Source: Chitinophagaceae bacterium (GTDB lineage Bacteria > Bacteroidota > Bacteroidia > Chitinophagales > Chitinophagaceae). Taken from it: a DNA stretch of 64,000 nucleotides. The DNA is taken from the NCBI GenBank assembly GCA_019745155.1, contig JAIETM010000010.1, positions 59,942 through 123,941 of the forward strand. The letters run 5' to 3'. The notes under the pieces are model-generated. The model saw only the letters and a program-made list of their open reading frames with translations. It searched no databases and was not told where the DNA came from. Position numbers and translations under genes: made by a program. This document shows, one piece after another, positions 20,331-30,576 of this stretch. Position 1 is the stretch's first letter; the number at the start of each line of letters is the position of its first letter.

Positions 20331-21443
20331 TTAATTCTTATTGAAGGCTTTCACTAGGAATACATAGTCTTCCATTTCCTTCACCTGGTTGGTTCTGTTC
20401 ATGCCCTTTAAAGAGCTATGCGTAGCTACTTTTACTTTCTGGAAAGCAGTATCATCTTTCTTCAGTGCATCAATCAGCTGATAAATATTTTTACTCTTTA
20501 CAGCAAAAGCAACACCTTCAGCAGTAGCTTGTCTGGTACTCAGGATACCAACTACTTCACCATTCTTGTTCAATACAGGTGCACCTGAACTACCGGGGTT
20601 GGCGCTCATCTGCAACTGGAAGCTCACACTATCACCATTGAAACCGGTTCTGGCACTTAGGTAACCGAGGTTATAAGAAATTTCATTTCTAGGATAACCG
20701 AGTGTAAAGATTTCCTCGCCTAAATCTGCGGTCTGCTTACGGATACCGTAGGGTAGCGCACGGAAGGCTTTGAAATCAGCATCATCAATTTTGAGGATAG
20801 CAATATCTTTCTCTGCATCGGTATAGGCAATCACTGCTTTGAATTCATCGCCCTTGCTATTTACCACAACTGCAGAAGTACCGCGCACCACGTGGGCATT
20901 GGTAACCAGATAACCTTTGGGGTCAATCAGGAAGCCGGTACCACCACCGACCATTTTGGCATCGGCGGGGATCTTACCTTTTACTTCGTTGATCAGATTA
21001 CCCTGATATTGTTGATTGCGCTTGATCACCGCAATATCGCGGCTTAGCTGTTGAATTTGAGAATGGTTAACAGGAGAGAAATAGGCCACTAATCCGCTAA
21101 TCAGCAAAGCAATACCACCACCCACAGATGCGGCAATGGCAGTTACGCGGCGGTATTTATTCCAGAGCTGGATTACACGTCCTTTGGCAGAAACAGTACC
21201 GCCTTCATTGATATCGCCTCTGTTCAGCAATTGCTGGTGTGCATGCTGTAAAGTGTGCTTCAATGCGGTGCGGTCGGCATAAAAGTCCATTTGGTGCAGA
21301 AACATATTATGCTCCACCACCATCTGATCTATCTCAGGTGTCTTTTTACGCAGATCTTCAAACCAACGTTTTTCCTCTGCGCTCATCTGACCGCTGAGGT
21401 ATTTTTCGATGGTTTCTAATAATAAAATGTCTTCCATAATCAC
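20331..21443 (-). CDS. single-pass membrane protein: anti-sigma-like N-terminal domain fused to a trypsin-like (S1) serine protease
   Basis: N-terminus is LETIEKYLSGQMSAEEKRWFEDL. One TM helix, VTAIAASVGGGIALLISGLVAYF. The protease domain carries TNAHVV (His), DIAILK (Asp) and NPGSSGAP (Ser). The start codon directly abuts the stop of the sigma gene. Confidence 0.8.
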   Translation of the reverse strand: MIMEDILLLETIEKYLSGQMSAEEKRWFEDLRKKTPEIDQMVVEHNMFLHQMDFYADRTALKHTLQHAHQQLLNRGDINEGGTVSAKGRVIQLWNKYRRVTAIAASVGGGIALLISGLVAYFSPVNHSQIQQLSRDIAVIKRNQQYQGNLINEVKGKIPADAKMVGGGTGFLIDPKGYLVTNAHVVRGTSAVVVNSKGDEFKAVIAYTDAEKDIAILKIDDADFKAFRALPYGIRKQTADLGEEIFTLGYPRNEISYNLGYLSARTGFNGDSVSFQLQMSANPGSSGAPVLNKNGEVVGILSTRQATAEGVAFAVKSKNIYQLIDALKKDDTAFQKVKVATHSSLKGMNRTNQVKEMEDYVFLVKAFNKN

Positions 21444-22052
21444 TTACTCCCCGATATTATATTGTGCGAAAAACAGTTTTTTCAAACGCATCAGGCATTT
21501 GTATTTCTGGTTCTTCGCATTATCTGCGTTGGTGTAGCCGAAGGCTGCAGCTATTCGCTGCATATCCTGCTTTTGCAGGTAAAAAGCCTCCAGCAGGCTT
21601 TTGCAGGGTTCGCCCAGGCTGTTTAGCGCCCGGTCCATGATAGCGAACTCGGCATTACGTTTCTCATGAATCTCCAAGTCTTCTTCCACCGGAACAGTCT
21701 CATCCAGATTGTCCAACGTGTTTGAATAGCGTCCAGTCTGCTGTAATCGTTTAAGCCAGAGTCGCCTGCATACGGAATATACATAGGTTTTAATTTGACA
21801 GGTTAATACAAATGATTCGCTTTGTGCTTTTTCATATAGCGTAATCATTGCCTCCTGAAAAATATCCCTGGCGTCGTCATAAGAACCGTTGTTATTGAGA
21901 ATGAAAGCTTGTACCATGTTAAAGTTGTCCTTATAAATGGTCTCAATAGCTCTTGAGTCGTTGCTAGCCAGTCCTTTCAGCAATAATTGTTCGTTAGTAT
22001 CGGCTTTCACTTTCTGCCTATTAATACGGTTCGGGGTGGAAAAGTAACCCAA
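21444..22052 (-). CDS. RNA polymerase sigma-70 family (ECF-like) sigma factor
   Basis: Region-2-like DARDIFQEAMITLYEK and region-4 helix-turn-helix QDMQRIAAAFGYTNADNAKNQKYKCLMRL. The track start is TTG, so the exact start is uncertain. Confidence 0.8.
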   Translation of the reverse strand: MGYFSTPNRINRQKVKADTNEQLLLKGLASNDSRAIETIYKDNFNMVQAFILNNNGSYDDARDIFQEAMITLYEKAQSESFVLTCQIKTYVYSVCRRLWLKRLQQTGRYSNTLDNLDETVPVEEDLEIHEKRNAEFAIMDRALNSLGEPCKSLLEAFYLQKQDMQRIAAAFGYTNADNAKNQKYKCLMRLKKLFFAQYNIGE

Positions 22053-22156
22053 GATAGGCCGAAAAAAATTTTTTCAAAATTTCTGTATAAGCCGGGTTAC
22101 CTTCTGTCGATTCCCGTATTAATATCAAAATTCACTCACAACAAAAGCTCATCAAA

Positions 22157-22339
22157 ATGAAAAAAGTACTTGCCTTACTGGCTATCGCCGGTTTCGTAGC
22201 TTGTAACAGTGGCGAAAGCACTGAAGCTAAAACTGATTCTCCTGCCGTTGCTGTTGATTCAACTGTAGCTCCTGCTGTTGACTCTGCTGCTCCTGCTGTT
22301 GATTCAGCTGCTGCCGCTGCTGATACTACCAAGAAGTAA
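22157..22339 (+). CDS. small low-complexity lipoprotein (60 aa)
   Basis: MKKVLALLAIAGFVAC lipobox-like signal and an A/P/V/D/S repeat tail. A terminator follows downstream. Confidence 0.55.
   Translation: MKKVLALLAIAGFVACNSGESTEAKTDSPAVAVDSTVAPAVDSAAPAVDSAAAAADTTKK
22268..22330 (+). repeat. three tandem 21-bp units (the third degenerate) encoding APAVDSA-type repeats
   Basis: gctcctgctgttgactctgct / gctcctgctgttgattcagct / gctgccgctgctgatactacc. Confidence 0.8.
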
Positions 22340-22443
22340 TTTCTCGGTACAGTGTGTAAGGGGTTCCTGCTTGCTGCCTAAGGGCGCCGAAAGGCCGGGA
22401 ACAGTGTGACTAAATATTTTCATATGGCAAGCAATCGTTAGAG

Positions 22444-22473
22444 GCCGTTCCGTTTCCACGGAAGGGCTTTTTT
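22444..22473 (+). terminator. intrinsic terminator of the small lipoprotein gene
   Basis: GCCGUUCCGU-UUCC-ACGGAAGGGC hairpin (one mismatch) followed by UUUUUU. Confidence 0.7.
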
Positions 22474-22539
22474 CGTTTTATACTAACGCTGGTTAGTGTT
22501 ATTCGACAAAAATTATTTCTATTCATTCAATTGGTTGGC

Positions 22540-22547
22540 TATATTTG
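22540..22547 (+). promoter_or_regulatory. candidate Bacteroidota -7 promoter box (TATATTTG)
   Basis: Matches TAnnTTTG and lies 8 nt upstream of the leader ATG. I see no good -33 TTTG, so the call is weak. If real, the leader mRNA would be nearly leaderless. Confidence 0.3.
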
Positions 22548-22554
22548 GTTCATC

Positions 22555-22647
22555 ATGCAGCAATTCATCCGTCATAGCTGGTTTTATTTTGGTTACTTTT
22601 TTTTCTATTTCAACAGAAATGGCCGGGTGGTGCTTGCTACAATCTAA
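22555..22647 (+). CDS. aromatic amino-acid operon leader peptide (30 aa)
   Basis: My translation is ATG CAG CAA TTC ATC CGT CAT AGC TGG TTT TAT TTT GGT TAC TTT TTT TTC TAT TTC AAC AGA AAT GGC CGG GTG GTG CTT GCT ACA ATC TAA = MQQFIRHSWFYFGYFFFYFNRNGRVVLATI. Ten of the eleven codons 9-19 are aromatic. The ORF overlaps the antiterminator and precedes the terminator and pheA. It is not in the ORF track, which lists only a 70-aa ORF in another frame. Confidence 0.7.
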   Translation: MQQFIRHSWFYFGYFFFYFNRNGRVVLATI

Positions 22648-22677
22648 ACTCAAACTAAAAAGCATACGATCCCGGCC
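22621..22677 (+). promoter_or_regulatory. antiterminator helix of the aromatic-operon attenuator
   Basis: GGCCGGG (22621-22627) is perfectly complementary to CCCGGCC (22671-22677), and UGCUU (22631-22635) to AAGCA (22660-22664). This helix sequesters the 5' arm of the terminator. The leader stop codon (22645-22647) lies in its loop. Confidence 0.6.
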
Positions 22678-22698
22678 TAAAGCCGGGATTTTTATTTT
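22669..22698 (+). terminator. attenuator terminator immediately upstream of pheA
   Basis: AUCCCGGC-CUAAA-GCCGGGAU perfect 8-bp hairpin followed by UUUUAUUUU, which runs straight into the pheA ATG at 22699. Confidence 0.7.
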
Positions 22699-23535
22699 AT
22701 GGCGATAAAAGTCTCGATACAGGGTTATGAAGGCAGTTTCCATCAGGTGGCAGCACGGCATCTGTTTGGAAAAGATGTGGAAGTGTTACCATGCGCCACT
22801 TTTCGTGAAGTGGTGAAACTCGCACTAGATAAGAAAGCCACTGACTTTGGTTTGATGGCTATTGAAAATTCTTTAGCCGGTAGTATTCTGCCCAACTATC
22901 ATCTTTTACAACAGAATAAACTGAAAGTGGTGGGCGAATTATACCTGCACATCAGTCAGAACCTCTTGGTGAACCCTGGTGTGAAGCTCGCTGATATCAA
23001 AGAAGTGCATAGTCACCCCATGGCCTTACTACAGTGTTTGGATTTTTTAGGTAAGCATGCATTCAAACTGGTAGAAACAGAAGATACTGCGCTTAGTGCG
23101 AAACACCTGCACCAACATCGAAGTAAAACTACCGCGGCAATCGCCAGTAAATTGGCTGCTGAATTATATGGACTGAAAGTGCTGGCGCCCGATATTCAAA
23201 CGCAGAAAAACAATATCACTAGATTCTTGGTGTTACGAAGAGAGAAAGAAGCAGTTATTCCACAAAACGCAGATAAGGCATCCGTATATTTTCAAACCAA
23301 TCATACCAAAGGTATACTGGCAAAAGTCTTGGGCATCATAGCAGAAGGTGGAATCAATCTGAGCAAGCTGCAAAGCATGCCCATACCAGGCAGCAACTTT
23401 AAATATGGTTTTTATGCTGATATGGAGTTTCAGGAAGTTGCACAGTTTGAAGCAGTAATGGAATCATTAGAATCAGCAACCAATAATCTTCGGGTATTTG
23501 GTATGTATAAAAAAGGAAAACGCATCAAAGGATGA
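22699..23535 (+). CDS. pheA: prephenate dehydratase (with C-terminal ACT domain)
   Basis: IQGYEGSFHQVAA, AIENSLAGSI, TRFLVL and an ACT-like C-terminus. Confidence 0.92.
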   Translation: MAIKVSIQGYEGSFHQVAARHLFGKDVEVLPCATFREVVKLALDKKATDFGLMAIENSLAGSILPNYHLLQQNKLKVVGELYLHISQNLLVNPGVKLADIKEVHSHPMALLQCLDFLGKHAFKLVETEDTALSAKHLHQHRSKTTAAIASKLAAELYGLKVLAPDIQTQKNNITRFLVLRREKEAVIPQNADKASVYFQTNHTKGILAKVLGIIAEGGINLSKLQSMPIPGSNFKYGFYADMEFQEVAQFEAVMESLESATNNLRVFGMYKKGKRIKG

Positions 23536-24695
23536 GTATACAGATTAGTACAGCAAAGCGATTAGATGGTATTGGCGAATACTATTTCTCACAAAAGTTA
23601 AGAGAAATCGAACTATTGAATCAGCAAGGAAAGCAGATCATTAATTTGGGTATTGGTAGTCCCGATTTACCACCACACCCTGATGTGATTCGCGTTTTGC
23701 AAGAGGAGAGTGCCAAGCCTAATACACATGCTTATCAATCATACAAAGGTTCACCTGTATTGCGCAAAGCTGTAACCGATTGGTATCAGCGTTGGTATAA
23801 TGTTTCTTTAAATCCAGATACAGAAGTGCTGCCATTGATTGGTAGTAAAGAAGGTATTATGCATATCTGCATGACTTACTTGAATGATGGCGATCAGGCA
23901 TTGATTCCCGATCCGGGTTATCCTACTTATAGCAGTGCTGTGAAGTTAGCAGGTGGTGAACCTGTGCCTTATCACCTGAGTGAAGCACACGGTTGGTTTC
24001 CTGATTTTGCTTTACTTGAAGAGATGGATTTACGAAAGGTGAAATTGATGTGGGTGAATTATCCGCATATGCCTACCGGACAAGTACCTGATACCAGTAA
24101 GTTTGAAGAGTTAGTGGCATTTGGTAGAAAACACCATATCCTAATCTGCCATGATAATCCCTACAGTTTCATCTTGAATGAACAACCAACCAGTTTGCTG
24201 GCTGTAGATGGTGCAAAAGATGTAGTACTTGAGTTGAACTCACTCAGTAAGAGTAAAAATATGGCTGGCTGGCGTGTAGGTATGTTGTGTGCGGCTAAAG
24301 AAAGAATCAATGAAGTCTTACGCTTTAAAAGTAATATGGACAGTGGTATGTTTTTGCCAGTGCAGTTGGCTGCAGCAAAAGCATTGAGTTTGGATAAATC
24401 ATGGTATGATGAAGTAAATGCTATTTATGCAGCAAGAAGGGAAAAAGTGTTTGAATTGCTCAACTTATTGAAATGTCGCTACAGCAAAGATCAGGTGGGT
24501 ATGTTTGTTTGGGCATCAATACCGGAAGGTGAAGTGAGTGGATATAGTTTGAGCGACAAAATCCTATATGGTGCGAACGTGTTTATTACACCAGGCGGCA
24601 TTTTTGGTAAAGCAGGTGAACAATATATCCGCATCAGTCTTTGCGGCAGTGTTACTTTATTTGAACAAGCGATTGAAAGAATACAACAATTATGA
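23532..24695 (+). CDS. class I/II PLP-dependent aminotransferase (probable aromatic/prephenate aminotransferase)
   Basis: NPYSF and LNSLSKSKNMAGWRVG (PLP-binding lysine) motifs. ATGA overlap with pheA. The operon context suggests an aromatic substrate. Confidence 0.85.
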   Translation: MSIQISTAKRLDGIGEYYFSQKLREIELLNQQGKQIINLGIGSPDLPPHPDVIRVLQEESAKPNTHAYQSYKGSPVLRKAVTDWYQRWYNVSLNPDTEVLPLIGSKEGIMHICMTYLNDGDQALIPDPGYPTYSSAVKLAGGEPVPYHLSEAHGWFPDFALLEEMDLRKVKLMWVNYPHMPTGQVPDTSKFEELVAFGRKHHILICHDNPYSFILNEQPTSLLAVDGAKDVVLELNSLSKSKNMAGWRVGMLCAAKERINEVLRFKSNMDSGMFLPVQLAAAKALSLDKSWYDEVNAIYAARREKVFELLNLLKCRYSKDQVGMFVWASIPEGEVSGYSLSDKILYGANVFITPGGIFGKAGEQYIRISLCGSVTLFEQAIERIQQL

Positions 24696-25540
24696 CAGCG
24701 GCGATTATTGGTACAGGTTTGATAGGTGGCTCAATGGCCATAGCATTAAAAGCACATGGCTTGGCAGATACGATTATAGGTGTTGACGCAAGCGAAGCGC
24801 ACGCATTACGAGCATTGGAATTGCAATTGGTTGATCAGGTGCTTCCATTGAAAGAGGCAGTACAAGCAGCAAAGCTGGTGGTGATGGCAGTGCCTGTGGA
24901 TGCGATGAATGAATTATTACCACAAGTATTACAGGCAGCTAATCAGCAGCAAGTTGTTATGGATGTTGGCTCTACCAAAGAACCCATCTGTGCATTGGCA
25001 GCGGTTTGCGATAATGCGGGGCGTTTTGTTGCTACGCACCCCATGTGGGGTACGGAGTTCAGTGGCCCTGATGCAGCAGTGAAAGGTGCGTTCAGCGGTA
25101 AAGCAACAGTGATTTGTAATAAAGAAGCAAGTGATGCAGATGCTGTAGCCTTGGTTGAACAAATCTATCAGAAGTTACAGATGCATATTTTGTATATGAC
25201 AGCAGCAGCACACGATGTGCATGTGGCCTATATTAGTCATATCTCGCACATCACTTCATTTGCATTGGCCAATACTGTATTGGAGAAAGAAAAAGAAGAA
25301 GATGCCATTTTTGAATTGGCGAGTGGTGGTTTTGAGAGTACGGTACGTCTGGCAAAGAGTAACCCCGCTATGTGGGTGCCTATTCTGATGCAGAACAGGG
25401 AAAATGTATTGGATGTTTTAAATGAACATATTTCACAGCTGCGCAAATTCAAAGCCTGTCTGGAAAAAGAGAACTATGATTACCTGCGCGAATTGATGGA
25501 ACAAGCTAATACCATTCGTAAAGTCCTGAACAGAAATTAA
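24692..25540 (+). CDS. tyrA: prephenate dehydrogenase
   Basis: IIGTGLIGGSMA Rossmann motif, DVGSTK and HPMWG. ATGA overlap with the upstream gene. Confidence 0.9.
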   Translation: MTAAIIGTGLIGGSMAIALKAHGLADTIIGVDASEAHALRALELQLVDQVLPLKEAVQAAKLVVMAVPVDAMNELLPQVLQAANQQQVVMDVGSTKEPICALAAVCDNAGRFVATHPMWGTEFSGPDAAVKGAFSGKATVICNKEASDADAVALVEQIYQKLQMHILYMTAAAHDVHVAYISHISHITSFALANTVLEKEKEEDAIFELASGGFESTVRLAKSNPAMWVPILMQNRENVLDVLNEHISQLRKFKACLEKENYDYLRELMEQANTIRKVLNRN

Positions 25541-25568
25541 ACATCATCATACAATCAAATATCTTTAT

Positions 25569-26654
25569 ATGCAAGCAACCGCAACCATGAAAGAAAAAGT
25601 ACAAGCCATTTTATCCAAAGCGCCCATTATTATTTCGGGGCCCTGCAGTGCAGAAACTGAAGAGCAATTATTGGCAACTGCGCAACGATTAGCTAACACA
25701 GGTAAAATTGATATGCTGCGTGCAGGTATCTGGAAACCTAGAACACGTCCCGGAAGTTTTGAAGGAGTAGGTGTAAAGGGGTTACCTTGGTTATTACAAG
25801 CCAAGAAAATTACCGGCTTGCCTACAACGGTGGAAGTGGCTACAGGCAAACAAGTGGAAGATGCTTTGAATTTTGATGTAGATGTGTTGTGGGTTGGTGC
25901 AAGAACAACGGTGAATCCTTTTTCAGTGCAAGAAGTTGCTGACGCATTACGCGGTGTGGATGTACCTGTCTTGATCAAAAATCCGATTAACCCTGATTTA
26001 GAATTGTGGACAGGTGCAGTAGAACGTATTGCTAAAGCAGGTATCAAGACAATCGGTTTAATCCATCGTGGCTTTAGTTCTTATGGCAATACGGAATACC
26101 GTAATGCGCCTATGTGGCACTTAGCGATTGAGATGAAGCGCCGCAATCCCGGTATGATCATGATCAATGATCCATCGCATATTTCAGGTAGAAGAGATAT
26201 TTTGTTAGATGTATCCCAGAAAGCTATCAACCTCGATTTTGATGGTTTGATGATTGAATCGCATATTGATCCGGATAATGCGTGGAGTGATGCGAAACAG
26301 CAGGTTACGCCTGAGCGTTTGGTTGAAATGCTGGAGGAAATTGTTTGGAGAAAAGAAGATGTGGATTCAGAAGCATTTCATGCTGCATTAGAGAAGCTGC
26401 GTCAGCAGATCAATCATTTGGATGATGAATTGATGCAGTTGTTGGGACAAAGAATGAAGATTGCAGAGAAGATTGGTCAGTATAAGAAGGACAACAATAT
26501 CACCATTCTGCAAACGAATCGCTGGAATGAGATTTTGGAGCGCGCGTATAGGAAAGGCGATGTGTTGGGCTTGAGTAAAGAGTTTGTTACCAAGTATCTA
26601 GATGCAGTGCATTTGGAAAGTATCAACCATCAGAATAGAATCATGAACGATTGA
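25569..26654 (+). CDS. bifunctional 3-deoxy-7-phosphoheptulonate (DAHP) synthase (type I-beta, KDOPS-like) / chorismate mutase
   Basis: N-terminus has ISGPCSAE, GIWKPRTRP and DPSH motifs. The C-terminal ~90 aa (LRQQINHLDDELMQLLGQRMKIAEKIGQYK...) look like an AroQ-type chorismate mutase. Confidence 0.88.
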   Translation: MQATATMKEKVQAILSKAPIIISGPCSAETEEQLLATAQRLANTGKIDMLRAGIWKPRTRPGSFEGVGVKGLPWLLQAKKITGLPTTVEVATGKQVEDALNFDVDVLWVGARTTVNPFSVQEVADALRGVDVPVLIKNPINPDLELWTGAVERIAKAGIKTIGLIHRGFSSYGNTEYRNAPMWHLAIEMKRRNPGMIMINDPSHISGRRDILLDVSQKAINLDFDGLMIESHIDPDNAWSDAKQQVTPERLVEMLEEIVWRKEDVDSEAFHAALEKLRQQINHLDDELMQLLGQRMKIAEKIGQYKKDNNITILQTNRWNEILERAYRKGDVLGLSKEFVTKYLDAVHLESINHQNRIMND

Positions 26655-26656
26655 TC

Positions 26657-27679
26657 ATGCAACAAAAACAATTTCAATTCTCAGATAAGCGGGTGTCCTA
26701 TTATTTTGATGCCGATAGCAAACAGCTAAAGCAATTCTGTGATCCTGCGCATACCATTTTCATTACCGATGAGCATGTGCATGCAGCACATGGAAAAAAG
26801 TGGAAGGGCTGGAAAACCATCGTACTCAAAGCAGGTGAGGAATATAAACTGCAGCAAACAGTGGATGCGGTGATTGATACTTTGATAGAGATGGAAGCTG
26901 ATCGAAAGACTATGCTAGTGGGTATAGGTGGTGGCGTTATTACCGACTTAACAGGTTATATCGCTGCGATCTATATGCGCGGTATTCGTTTTGGTTTTGT
27001 ACCAACTACATTATTATCGATGGTAGATGCATCTATCGGCGGTAAGAATGGGGTAGACGTAGGGGTTTATAAAAATTTGGTTGGCACCATACGTCAGCCT
27101 GAATTTATTCTTTTCGATACGGTTTTGTTAAAGACTTTACCTGATCCAGTTTTTCGTGACGGATTTACAGAAATCATCAAACATGCGGCCATTCTGGATG
27201 CGCCTATGTTCAAATGGCTGGAAGCGCAAACACCAAAGAAATTGCGCAGCAACAAAGCAGCGATGAACTGGTTGGTTACACGTAATGCTGTGTTGAAATC
27301 CAAACTGGTGCAGCGCGATGAATTTGAGCAGGGCGATCGTAAGCTGTTGAATTTTGGACATACACTCGGACATGCATTGGAAAACCAATATGAATTATCG
27401 CATGGTGAAGCGGTGGCTATTGGCATGACATACGCTGCACATTTCTCAGAAAAATATACCAAGTTCAAGCAGACTGATCGATTAACTGCATTATTGACGC
27501 AGTATGGGTTGCCTACTTATGCCGCTTTTGATGCACAAAAAGTATTTGATGTATTGAAGCATGATAAGAAGCGTAGTCGTACTTCAATGCAATATGTGTT
27601 ATTGCAAAAAATAGGTAAAGCAGTAATTCAACCCATTGCTTTAACCGAATTGGCACAAATGATTCAAGCTATCAAATGA
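26657..27679 (+). CDS. aroB: 3-dehydroquinate synthase
   Basis: GIGGGVITDLTGY, VDASIGGKNGV, NFGHTLGHALE. The track start at 26651 is TTG, and I prefer the ATG at 26657. Confidence 0.92.
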   Translation: MQQKQFQFSDKRVSYYFDADSKQLKQFCDPAHTIFITDEHVHAAHGKKWKGWKTIVLKAGEEYKLQQTVDAVIDTLIEMEADRKTMLVGIGGGVITDLTGYIAAIYMRGIRFGFVPTTLLSMVDASIGGKNGVDVGVYKNLVGTIRQPEFILFDTVLLKTLPDPVFRDGFTEIIKHAAILDAPMFKWLEAQTPKKLRSNKAAMNWLVTRNAVLKSKLVQRDEFEQGDRKLLNFGHTLGHALENQYELSHGEAVAIGMTYAAHFSEKYTKFKQTDRLTALLTQYGLPTYAAFDAQKVFDVLKHDKKRSRTSMQYVLLQKIGKAVIQPIALTELAQMIQAIK

Positions 27680-28959
27680 GGGTTCATATTCAACCAGGAA
27701 ATATTGGCGGCCTTATTGTTGCGCCGGCCTCTAAAAGTGCCATGCAGCGTGCATGTGCAGCTGCTTTATTGGCTAAAGGTGTGAGTGTATTAAAGAATCC
27801 CGGCAAGAGTAAAGACGATCTGGCAGCTATTGATACCATTCAAAGATTGGGTGCTAATGTGACAACTGCAGCGGATGGTAGTTTGCAAATTCAATCATAT
27901 GGGATCGAACCAAAAGAAGCCTTTGTGCATTGCGGTGAAAGTGGTTTGGGCATTCGTATGTTCACGCCTTTGATTGCATTGTATGATCAGGCAATTAGGA
28001 TCACAGGTGAGGGCAGTCTAACTACAAGACCCATGGATTTTTTTGATGCCATCTTACCGCAGTTGCAGGTGGATGTACAGTCAAACGGAGGAAAATTACC
28101 AATAGTGGTGAAAGGCCCATTGCAGCCGAAAGATATTGAGGTAGATGGTTCTTTGAGTTCGCAGTTTTTGACTGGTCTCATCATGGCTTATGCTGGTGCA
28201 GGCGCTGATGGTGTCACCATCACAGTGAAAGAGCTGAAGAGCAAACCATATATTGATTTAACCCTACATGTTTTATCGGCTTTTGGTGCGAATGTTACGC
28301 ATACCAATCATGAGCAATTTCATTTTCATGGCAGTAAGAGTATCATTCAGCCTGCAACCTATACAGTAGAGGGTGATTGGAGTGGTGGGGCTTTCTTGCT
28401 TGTTGCAGGGGCTTTAGCAGGAGAGACTATAGTAAAGGGGTTGGATCCTTTTTCTACACAAGCAGATAAAGCCATTTTACATGCATTGATGGATGCTGGT
28501 GTGCGCATGAGTATCGAAGAGGGACAAATTACTGTTCGTCCAAGTGAATTACAAGCATTTCAGTTTGACGCAACTGATTGTCCGGATTTGTTTCCCCCAT
28601 TGGTAGCATTGGCTGTGTATTGTCAAGGTACTTCTGTTATACAAGGGGTATCGCGCTTAGCACATAAGGAAAGTAATCGCGGTTTAACACTGCAAGAGGA
28701 ATTTGGTAAAATGGGTGCTGTTATCAAGTTGCAGGATGATTTGATGATTATTGAAGGAGCTAGACCTTTGCATGGGGCAGCGGTGCATTCAAGACATGAT
28801 CATCGCATTGCGATGGCATGTGCAGTTGCTGCTTTAAAAGCTGAAGGTAAAACAAGCATTGACGATGCGGAAGCCATCAATAAATCCTATCCTAATTTTT
28901 ATGATCACTTACAGCGCTTAGGTGCCCATGTTATGGTAGATGCAACAAACAATTCATAA
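27676..28959 (+). CDS. aroA: 3-phosphoshikimate 1-carboxyvinyltransferase (EPSP synthase)
   Basis: APASKSAMQRA, LTTRPM, HKESNR and DHRIAMA motifs. ATGA overlap with aroB. Confidence 0.93.
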   Translation: MRVHIQPGNIGGLIVAPASKSAMQRACAAALLAKGVSVLKNPGKSKDDLAAIDTIQRLGANVTTAADGSLQIQSYGIEPKEAFVHCGESGLGIRMFTPLIALYDQAIRITGEGSLTTRPMDFFDAILPQLQVDVQSNGGKLPIVVKGPLQPKDIEVDGSLSSQFLTGLIMAYAGAGADGVTITVKELKSKPYIDLTLHVLSAFGANVTHTNHEQFHFHGSKSIIQPATYTVEGDWSGGAFLLVAGALAGETIVKGLDPFSTQADKAILHALMDAGVRMSIEEGQITVRPSELQAFQFDATDCPDLFPPLVALAVYCQGTSVIQGVSRLAHKESNRGLTLQEEFGKMGAVIKLQDDLMIIEGARPLHGAAVHSRHDHRIAMACAVAALKAEGKTSIDDAEAINKSYPNFYDHLQRLGAHVMVDATNNS

Positions 28960-28980
28960 GTTTACAAGACAGTCATTTAT

Positions 28981-29979
28981 ATGAATACATTCGGTCGCTT
29001 ATTCCGACTCAGCATATTTGGCGAATCACATGGTCCTGCAGTTGGCATCACCATTGATGGCGTGCCTGCAGGTATATCTCTGCGTAGTGATGATTTTATC
29101 ACAGACATTGAACGCAGAAAGGGTGGTGTACAAAAAGGCACTACCCCAAGGCAGGAATCTGATATGCCGATATTTCAATCAGGGGTGTTTAATGATATCA
29201 CTACTGGTGCACCATTGACCATGTTGTTTGAAAACAAGAACACACGTTCCGGTGATTATGAGAAGCAAAGAGCCATTCCACGTCCAGGTCATGCAGATTT
29301 TGTAGCGCATCAGAAGTTTGGTGGTTTTGAAGACTACAGAGGTGGTGGGCATTTCAGTGGAAGACTCACTGTTTGTTTGGTGGGTGCCGGCGTGGTTGCT
29401 AAAAAAATATTACAAGAAATTTCTGTACAAGCATCGATTCTCTCCATAGCTGGCGAAGCAGATCCGGACAAAGGATTACAGAAAGCGATTGATGCGAAAG
29501 ATTCTGTAGGTGGAATTGTTGAGTGTCGTGTTACGGGTTTACCAGCCGGATTAGGTGAACCATTTTTTGATTCAGTAGAATCTTTGATTAGTCACGCAGT
29601 CTTTGCCATTCCTGCCATTAAAGGCATTGAATTCGGTGCGGGCTTTGCTGCAGCCAATATGTTTGGCAGCGAACATAATGATGCAATTCTGGATGGAACA
29701 GGAGCAACTAAAACCAATCATGCAGGGGGCATTGTTGGCGGCATTACCAATGGGAATGAATTGGTTTTTCGGGTAGTGGTGAAGCCTACTTCTTCTACAC
29801 CAAAAGAACAAACAACCTATAACTGGGAAACAGATACCCAGGATATACTTTCGGTAAAGGGCAGACATGATCTCTGTATTGCTTTGCGTGTGCCTGTGGT
29901 GTTAGAGTCAGTTACAGCTTGTGTGCTCGCAGATTTATTATTGATGGAACAAAAAATAAAAAGGGTTTGGAATGGCTGA
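28981..29979 (+). CDS. aroC: chorismate synthase
   Basis: FGESHGPAVG, RPGHADF and GRHDLC motifs. At 332 aa it is at the short end for the family. Confidence 0.92.
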   Translation: MNTFGRLFRLSIFGESHGPAVGITIDGVPAGISLRSDDFITDIERRKGGVQKGTTPRQESDMPIFQSGVFNDITTGAPLTMLFENKNTRSGDYEKQRAIPRPGHADFVAHQKFGGFEDYRGGGHFSGRLTVCLVGAGVVAKKILQEISVQASILSIAGEADPDKGLQKAIDAKDSVGGIVECRVTGLPAGLGEPFFDSVESLISHAVFAIPAIKGIEFGAGFAAANMFGSEHNDAILDGTGATKTNHAGGIVGGITNGNELVFRVVVKPTSSTPKEQTTYNWETDTQDILSVKGRHDLCIALRVPVVLESVTACVLADLLLMEQKIKRVWNG

Positions 29980-30274
29980 TTTGATTTATCATGTAACGAC
30001 ACAGCAAGCATGGGATGATGCAGTTGCTAAAGGTTTTTATGCAGCTCCTTCTTTAGCGATAGAAGGGTTTATTCATTGCAGTACGGCTGATCAGGTAGCT
30101 GGTGTTTTAGAAAGATATTATCAAGGTGTGCCTAATTTAGTTAAGCTGGTGATAGATCCTGATTTACTCAAAAGTGAATTGAAATTTGAACTAGCACCTT
30201 CGGTGAATGAGTTATTTCCGCATGTGTTTGGCAATATCAATCTGGATGCTGTAGTTACGATTCAAAACATCTAG
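29972..30274 (+). CDS. DUF952 domain-containing protein
   Basis: IYHVTTQQAWD...EGFIHCSTADQV pattern. Overlaps the aroC stop by 8 nt (AATGGCTGA). Confidence 0.7.
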   Translation: MADLIYHVTTQQAWDDAVAKGFYAAPSLAIEGFIHCSTADQVAGVLERYYQGVPNLVKLVIDPDLLKSELKFELAPSVNELFPHVFGNINLDAVVTIQNI

Positions 30275-30279
30275 TAGTC

Positions 30280-30576
30280 ATGCATCAACATACCATTAAT
30301 GCGAGCATACAGTTGATTCCTGTCTCACTCAGCAAGCATCCTTATGCTTGGGTGGATGAAGCCATAGCTGTTATTCAAAGTTCAGGTATCAAGCATGAAG
30401 TCACAGCTTTTGGAACAGTTTTGGAAGGCGGTTATGCAGAAGTGATGGATGTGATTCATCAAGTACAAGAACATATGTTGTCGATAGGCTGTGAGGAGTG
30501 GATTAGCCAAATCCAAATTCAAATCAGAAAAGATGGTCCAATCACAGGGGATGCTAAAACAGAAAAGTTTCGTTAG
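30280..30576 (+). CDS. MTH1187/YkoF-like thiamine-binding family small protein
   Basis: 98 aa. ASIQLIPV...TAFGTVLEG pattern of the ferredoxin-like MTH1187 family. Confidence 0.65.
   Translation: MHQHTINASIQLIPVSLSKHPYAWVDEAIAVIQSSGIKHEVTAFGTVLEGGYAEVMDVIHQVQEHMLSIGCEEWISQIQIQIRKDGPITGDAKTEKFR

Follow-up and report, generated by a model that had tools for sequence, protein, structure and literature searches.

The nine-gene pheA-tyrA-aro operon of a Chitinophagaceae bacterium is preceded by an element that is very probably a classical ribosome-mediated (leader-peptide) transcription attenuator. The element lies in a stretch of 64,000 nucleotides (nt) from contig JAIETM010000010.1 (GenBank assembly GCA_019745155.1, positions 59,942 to 123,941 of the forward strand), here called the window, whose own numbering is used throughout. 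A preliminary description of this DNA, made from the letters alone, had proposed an aromatic-rich leader peptide with alternative antiterminator and terminator helices before the operon, and comparative conservation and covariation now support that proposal. The element is a genuine and strongly conserved attenuator, not a new mechanism. Judging from its codons, it would sense how much charged tRNA-Phe, and probably also charged tRNA-Tyr, is available. Two of its features, a covarying hairpin (P1) and a conserved spacing between promoter box and leader AUG, are additions of the present analysis.

Leader ORF and alternative helices in front of pheA

The leader open reading frame (ORF; 22555-22647, + strand) comprises 30 codons and a TAA stop, and its conceptual translation is MQQFIRHSWFYFGYFFFYFNRNGRVVLATI. 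Its regulatory run, W9 to F19 (22579-22611, +), holds six Phe, three Tyr, one Trp and one Gly codon, which makes ten of codons 9-19 aromatic. Translation reproduced both the ORF and the run as first described, coordinates included. In a window-wide scan for short ORFs that combine an amino-acid run with a downstream terminator, this leader was the sole aromatic case. It stands on the same strand as the biosynthetic operon and directly 5´ of it, and its run consists of codons for amino acids made by the regulated pathway. The operon itself (22699-30576, +) is, as had been proposed, a series of nine genes that all run in one direction and either overlap or stand no more than 28 nt apart, in the order pheA (prephenate dehydratase), aminotransferase, tyrA (prephenate dehydrogenase), DAHP synthase/chorismate mutase (DAHPS/CM), aroB, aroA, aroC, DUF952 and Thiamine_BP; the gene that follows is convergent.

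Between the leader ORF and pheA the sequence holds an intrinsic terminator hairpin (22668-22690, +) formed by segments 3 and 4, with nine base pairs (bp), the loop CUAAA and a 5´ arm that includes segment 3. The terminator scan gave it as GATCCCGGC-CTAAA-GCCGGGATT, six of the nine pairs being G-C, followed by TTTTATTTT. Its U-tract, UUUUAUUUU (22690-22698, +), stops 1 nt short of the pheA ATG at 22699. The earlier view of a hairpin whose U-tract leads up to pheA holds good, the scan giving nine pairs at 22668-22690.

Segment 2, GGCCGGG (22621-22627, +), is the 5´ strand of the antiterminator and the exact complement of segment 3, CCCGGCC (22671-22677, +), within the terminator 5´ arm. When segment 4 was left out, RNAfold paired exactly these two segments, in agreement with the pairing first proposed. 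The leader stop codon (22645-22647, +) falls between segments 2 and 3 and inside the antiterminator loop, where it had been placed before, and therefore a ribosome that reads on would physically separate the two segments. Computed for both folds, the free energies were -21.0 kcal/mol for the antiterminator (RNAfold on the RNA between the last aromatic codons and the loop of the terminator, segment 4 omitted) and -15.3 kcal/mol for the terminator hairpin, and the 162-nt stretch as a whole folds at z = -2.97 relative to dinucleotide shuffles. The antiterminator makes use of the terminator 5´ arm, and its placement fits a stalled versus an advancing ribosome: segment 2 starts 12 nt past the point where the last aromatic codon begins, roughly the position reached by the leading edge of a ribosome with this codon in its A site. 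With the RNA 5´ of the ribosome edge masked, the minimum free energy (MFE) structure of the window is the antiterminator for A-site codons 14-18. It changes to the terminator once the ribosome has reached codon 19, and remains so up to the stop codon and in RNA that carries no ribosome.

The motif GGCCGGG has only four copies on both strands of the 64-kb window. An extra copy at 22393-22399 (+), about 160 nt 5´ of the leader and before the promoter box, falls within the 3´ region of the preceding gene; it probably belongs to the 3´ structure of that gene and not to the attenuator.

Conservation and covariation in Chitinophagaceae

For the comparison, a PheA scan with one genome per species yielded 80 loci from Chitinophagaceae or unclassified Bacteroidota (65-97% PheA identity), among them Sediminibacterium, Lacibacter, Puia, Ilyomonas and Danxiaibacter. 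In 75 of the 80 loci, pheA is closely preceded by a short ORF that starts with ATG and has a stretch in which 8-10 of 10 residues are aromatic. The other five were recovered by a covariance model, R1, built from the alignment of Chitinophagaceae leaders only; one of them (L047) has a GTG start and four are copies cut by contig ends. In this set, the check on orthologous leaders found the aromatic ORF and the alternative helices kept, with covariation, in 80/80 loci (76 intact, 4 cut by a contig end). A G+C hairpin with a T-run follows 17-44 nt 3´ of the leader stop in 75/75 loci, and in each of these at least five of the nine bases after the hairpin are T.

The coding constraint is seen in 66 distinct leaders of 19-30 codons. 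Each run contains at least four Phe and at least two Tyr (means 5.8 and 3.2). Aromatic codons make up 95% of the run in frame versus 27-29% in the other two frames, and synonymous codons are both used (TTT 250, TTC 130, TAT 110, TAC 99). Where the alignment covers the ORF, most indels have a length divisible by three. Trp, which the preliminary description had included among the amino acids sensed, fares less well. A single TGG codon is found in only 26/66 distinct leaders, its position being taken elsewhere by R, T, N, L, G or Y, and this rules out Trp sensing as a conserved feature; sensing of Trp by the leader appears doubtful.

Past the run, the reading frame of GCCGGG differs between leaders of the Sediminibacterium type (AGC-CGG-G, SRV) and those of the Lacibacter type (G-CCG-GG, KPG/RPG), and therefore the constraint here acts on the RNA and not on the peptide tail. 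These observations bear on the simplest alternative, a constitutive terminator or insulator preceded by an aromatic ORF that is either a by-product of T-rich DNA or codes for a small hydrophobic peptide with a function of its own. In its favour, the DNA here is rich in A+T, and short ORFs occur frequently. A peptide with its own function is, however, hard to reconcile with a C-terminus whose frame differs between clades while the RNA is kept, and a by-product with an element that is present in 80/80 loci together with three-segment complementarity and covariation. An insulator would also be superfluous behind an upstream gene that already has a terminator (~22443-22475), and a constitutive terminator would make no sense immediately before an essential biosynthetic operon, 3´ of that operon's conserved promoter box. 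We give this alternative almost no credence.

With segment 4 withheld, a G/ACCGGG segment located 3-4 codons past the aromatic run pairs with the terminator 5´ arm in 74/74 distinct loci, with antiterminator energies of -12.3 to -26.0 kcal/mol (mean -17.3, versus a terminator mean of -15.8). When 55 distinct segment 2/3/4 triples were anchored and compared without gaps, the 6-bp core G/ACCGGG:CCCGGC/U was 100% paired. Its outer pair varies (GC in 44, GU in 7, AU in 4), and at locus L050 a G-to-A change in segments 2 and 4 is matched by C-to-U in segment 3. As read from these alignments, the conserved antiterminator is this 6-bp core. The terminator is 93.7% paired in 64 sequences, and four of its nine pairs show compensatory changes.

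In the window, RNAfold extends the antiterminator inwards by pairing GUGCUU (22630-22635) with AAGCAU (22660-22665, +), with the leader stop codon in the loop. The preliminary description had made UGCUU/AAGCA a part of the antiterminator; the extension stands for the window fold but is not conserved as a helix. Counted in a fixed register, pairing amounts to 67%, which is within the controls, and the stretch between segments 2 and 3 alone folds like its shuffles (mean z -0.43). The inner helix is clade-specific only and was rejected as a general feature.

The strongest covariation within the element belongs to P1, a hairpin predicted by RNAalifold (UAUUUC:GAAAUG with loop AACA; 22606-22611 with 22616-22621, +). 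The two final aromatic codons make up its 5´ strand, while its 3´ strand immediately precedes segment 2, which it abuts. P1 is 95.7% paired, with compensatory changes in three of five pairs (AU 28/UG 12/UA 8; CG 49/UA 7). For P1 and the antiterminator core combined, 0/500 shuffles reach the observed values on four of five whole-structure measures. In the MAFFT alignment, P1 plus core, and separately the terminator, beat all 500 shuffles and all slid controls in percentage paired and in cells changed on both sides, controls that are not probabilities and that were applied to phylogenetically related sequences. In our reading, P1 most likely corresponds to the 1:2 pause hairpin.

A nearly invariant UUUG is found 5 nt past segment 2 (alignment A1, columns 79-82); more than 90% of the relatives have it, and the window has CUUG at 22633-22636. 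It is kept in two reading frames (V-V-F-A versus M-L-L-L) and therefore acts at the RNA or DNA level. Together with a G ten bases 5´, it resembles a pause consensus of the form G(-10)...Y(-1)G(+1).

One could imagine that a trans-acting protein or RNA binds the U-rich tract or P1 and selects antiterminator or terminator, the ORF being incidental. Alternative helices by themselves would fit protein- or RNA-mediated attenuation as well, and both P1 and the near-invariant UUUG past segment 2 are conserved as RNA in two frames. What such a factor leaves unaccounted for is the ORF. Start, stop and a length of 19-30 codons are kept in 76/76 loci that have the whole element on the contig, and frame 0 only is 95% F/Y/W, with synonymous variation and mostly in-frame indels, none of which a U-rich binding site needs. 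Nor does any Rfam family match at gathering threshold at the leader. We consider regulation by a trans-acting factor highly improbable.

The position of the hairpin, 8 nt before the pheA AUG, brings up mainly translational control, in which the hairpin 22668-22690 would occlude initiation and leader translation or stalling would open it. Bacteroidota lack Shine-Dalgarno initiation (PMC9723704), which may make them dependent on unstructured upstream RNA, and the hairpin ends 6-8 nt from pheA in the window and in nine other listed loci. In most relatives, however, it ends 25-211 nt before pheA, and occlusion therefore cannot be the general mechanism. The T-run of at least five of nine bases past the hairpin, seen in 75/75 loci, is likewise the mark of a terminator, and the differing transcript levels of 5´ region and operon in Flavobacterium psychrophilum amount to read-through behaviour (PMC9723704). 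Translational control as the main mechanism is very unlikely; occlusion could act as an added layer in this window only.

The distances are themselves affected by annotation. Many PheA homologues are annotated with 291-318 amino acids (most 293-300) instead of 278, using an in-frame ATG about 18-75 nt (mostly 45-60) 5´ of the aligned start, and in the loci concerned 50-130 nt mostly separate the end of the terminator from the aligned start. Where pheA truly begins, and with it the terminator-to-start distance, is uncertain.

Putative promoter, proposed mechanism and genomic setting

A putative sigma-A -7 promoter box, TATATTTG (22540-22547, +; consensus TAnnTTTG), lies 7 nt before the leader ATG. 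An exact TAnnTTTG is present 4-8 nt 5´ of the leader ATG in 63/73 distinct upstream regions, the most common gap being 7 nt (39 regions), whereas the gap is 17-38 nt in the Flavobacteriia sampled. In F. psychrophilum the box spans -12 to -5 relative to mapped transcription start sites (TSSs; PMC9723704), and therefore transcription is predicted to start at A22552 (+), leaving a 5´ untranslated region (UTR) of 3 nt (AUC). The fifth base past the box, the predicted +1, is a purine in 38/39 loci with the 7-nt gap (read by eye); as this base also occupies position -3 relative to the ATG, a preference in translation may account for the purine instead. The spacing strengthens the suggestion, made in the preliminary description, that the mRNA is nearly leaderless, and a near-leaderless leader ORF would be a feature of the sampled Chitinophagaceae loci. 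Leaderless mRNAs have been reported at 5.5% in F. psychrophilum and ~3.7% in Bacteroides thetaiotaomicron. Elsewhere in the window, three long ORFs (16945 +, 53305 - and 18418 -) have a TAnnTTTG only 3-4 nt 5´ of the first ATG, and leaderless mRNAs may be fairly common in this genome.

In the mechanism that we propose, transcription would start ~3 nt 5´ of the leader AUG from the TAnnTTTG promoter, and a ribosome would load at once and translate the 30-codon leader. If Phe-tRNA or Tyr-tRNA is scarce, the ribosome would stall in the run at 22579-22611, its leading edge reaching ~12-13 nt past the A-site codon and stopping short of segment 2 (22621-22627). The free segment 2 would pair with segment 3 (22671-22677) once this is made, no terminator would form, and transcription would read through into pheA. 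With good supply, the ribosome would cover segment 2, reach the stop codon at 22645 and sit between segments 2 and 3; segment 3 would then pair with segment 4, and transcription would terminate in the U-tract at ~22694-22698, giving an RNA of ~145 nt.

Some results weigh against this mechanism, in addition to the relatedness of the sequences compared above. The leader peptides (five variants) were not found in a collection of 15 billion proteins. A long-range 1:2 helix between the region before the run and segment 2 is 70% paired in a fixed register, no better than slid or shuffled controls; in folds of single loci this pairing has a mean z of -1.1 and engages the core in 60% of loci. P1 lies next to segment 2 in most loci and neither overlaps nor competes with it. 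When the full leader is folded at equilibrium, the terminator is preferred at any stall position in 56/74 loci, the antiterminator being the MFE structure in only 18/74, and the switch must therefore be kinetic, helix 2:3 forming before segment 4 is made, as in E. coli trp. Equilibrium stall modelling across all loci was rejected as a test for this reason. Finally, Tyr supply was reported to be without effect on aroR of Corynebacterium glutamicum (PMC11802643), so conserved Tyr codons may not be sensed; the present element allows this to be asked.

The transcription unit appears to be set off from its surroundings. Upstream lies an ORF for a lipoprotein-like peptide of 60 amino acids (22157-22339, +), to which the terminator at ~22443-22475 belongs, and therefore the leader would begin a separate transcription unit. 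The product of this ORF (MKKVLALLAIAGFVAC...) has a repetitive tail rich in Ala, Val, Asp and Ser and no Pfam match. It adjoins, on the opposite strand (20331-22052, -), a gene for a sigma factor of the extracytoplasmic function (ECF) type and one for a trypsin-like protease. Ahead of the pheA leader of Chitinophaga flava there is a similar set, which consists of a trypsin-like protease, an unannotated ORF of 191 amino acids and a small ORF on the + strand. At the other end of the operon, the last two genes (29972-30576, +), DUF952 and MTH1187/Thiamine_BP, are without an obvious role in aromatic synthesis. A thiamine pyrophosphate (TPP) riboswitch (RF00059; 63094-63192, -), with 67 bits and above its gathering score, is the sole Rfam family over threshold in the window.

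Relatives in Bacteroidota and known attenuators

A single-protein search and a first profile search returned almost only Chitinophagaceae, and a profile of distant representatives then gave named Flavobacteriia and Chitinophaga PheA. In this wider sample of Chitinophaga and Flavobacteriia, the arrangement of F/Y leader, P1, antiterminator and terminator recurs before pheA in Chitinophaga and three Flavobacteriia, all of which share the gene order pheA, aminotransferase, tyrA, DAHPS/CM. The leader peptides are MSNNRFYFSTSFYFFSER in Flavobacterium commune, MNLFNTYGFYYFFFFTKEERLFVC in Wenyingzhuangia aestuarii and MKTINAFGFYFFFFFFSKKEGLLMC in Ochrovirga pacifica. Model R1 gives 64.7 bits for Ochrovirga, 44.1 (twice) for C. 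flava, 37.4 for F. commune and 35.7 for Wenyingzhuangia, scores that may be inflated by shared codon bias and a shared terminator. Membership of a group of Bacteroidota pheA leaders is indicated by these matches of 35.7-64.7 bits and by the F. psychrophilum leader, which folds to the same architecture. Folding also finds P1 in the F. psychrophilum, Wenyingzhuangia and C. flava leaders. Segments 2, 3 and 4 are wholly different between lineages (e.g. GAGACUUUU/AAAAGUCUC and GGGAGGUC/GGCCUCCC), and three-way complementarity is kept in F. psychrophilum, Wenyingzhuangia, Ochrovirga and C. flava; as far as these sequences tell, segments that change together across lineages are covariation at the level of the family. 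C. flava (L081) has two tandem attenuator copies before pheA, at 2160-2292 and 2309-2445, each with its own terminator and each scoring 44.1 bits with R1; their leader peptides are MTTQTTFGFFGFYYFWYQE and MLNRNFSTYYFYYFFYAKKTGTRLQ.

One possibility, to which we give an even chance, is that the Chitinophagaceae attenuator is translated from an essentially leaderless mRNA that loads the sensing ribosome at the 5´ end of the nascent RNA and that, with a phylum-wide P1 as counterpart of the pause or 1:2 hairpin, it defines a Bacteroidota Phe/Tyr-leader family outside Rfam that spans at least Chitinophagia and Flavobacteriia. If so, a 3-nt 5´ UTR would couple translation to transcription in a phylum without Shine-Dalgarno initiation, and the 7-nt spacing from box to AUG is a natural test case for how a sensing ribosome is loaded under these circumstances. 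The more immediate value of the element is a well-supported regulatory annotation of the aromatic operon across Chitinophagaceae, consistent in 80 species-level genomes. The aligned, covarying sequences suffice to curate a Bacteroidota Phe/Tyr-leader RNA family, which Rfam currently lacks. The conceptual gain is small, pheA leader-peptide attenuation being textbook knowledge and mixed leaders having been reported before.

Weinberg et al. (2010) described Bacteroid-trp, a Leu/phe leader (Lactococcus) and an actinobacterial pheA motif, with no pheA leader from Bacteroidota. No Rfam family reaches its gathering threshold at the leader, the only one to do so in the whole window being the TPP riboswitch, and the Rfam search gave no match to the Leu/phe leader. 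Bacteroid-trp (RF01692) is similar in kind, being a predicted Bacteroidota leader-peptide attenuator on an aromatic (trp) operon, but it has Trp codons before a trp operon where the present leader has Phe and Tyr codons before pheA-tyrA-aro; membership in it was rejected, as the stretch 21000-24000 gave no hit even with E allowed to rise to 10. The Rfam Phe_leader (RF01859) was rejected as well, at 22 bits against a gathering score of 55 (E = 1.7). That family corresponds to the attenuator pheL-pheA of E. coli, in which a Phe-rich leader peptide and alternative helices give control via charged tRNA-Phe (PMC11802643). Both systems have a Phe-rich leader with antiterminator and terminator alternatives before pheA. 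The present leader differs in mixing Phe with at least two Tyr codons, in regulating nine genes, including tyrA and common-pathway genes, instead of a single one, and in being without a Shine-Dalgarno sequence and probably on a near-leaderless mRNA. No 1:2 helix with bases in common with 2:3 is supported in the Chitinophagaceae loci.

The preliminary description had called a mixed Phe, Tyr and Trp leader on pheA unusual. This was overstated, since there are precedents in aroR-aroF of C. glutamicum and in F. psychrophilum (PMC9723704). In C. glutamicum, the aroR leader (Phe-Tyr-Phe) upstream of aroF acts through ribosome stalling (Neshat et al., 2014, as summarised in PMC11802643), and transcription of the aroF operon is reported to rise under Phe limitation, responding to Phe and not to Tyr. 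As in the window, a mixed Phe/Tyr leader there serves a common shikimate-pathway gene (DAHP synthase). The two are from different phyla and without sequence relationship, and aroR has three regulatory codons versus 9-10 here. The ilvBNC leader of the same organism, discussed as a leaderless leader-peptide mRNA (PMC11857589), provides a precedent for that feature.

The closest known system is in F. psychrophilum, where Guerin et al. (2021) described an attenuation element of the leader-peptide type for pheA-aspC3 in the 5´ region THC0290_N_0195 (PMC9723704, Table S7, SI D9). Its leader of 27 amino acids, MNTNNTFYSNNSFYFYWNIGRDCYMVI, mixes F, Y and W. The TSS of this 5´ region of 170 nt has been mapped; read-through varies with the conditions and, like operon expression, is highest in minimal medium. 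The element is conserved in other Flavobacteriaceae and, according to that paper, has no Rfam match (PMC9723704). It differs from the present one in its segments (GGGAUUGU/ACAAUCCC versus GCCGGG/CCCGGC), in a mapped 5´ UTR of ~20 nt versus the predicted 3 nt, and in its aromatic run, which is denser in the window leader (10 of 11 codons). The two agree in phylum, in their first genes (pheA, then an aminotransferase) and in the architecture of P1, segment 2 and terminator, compared here by folding and not by model score.

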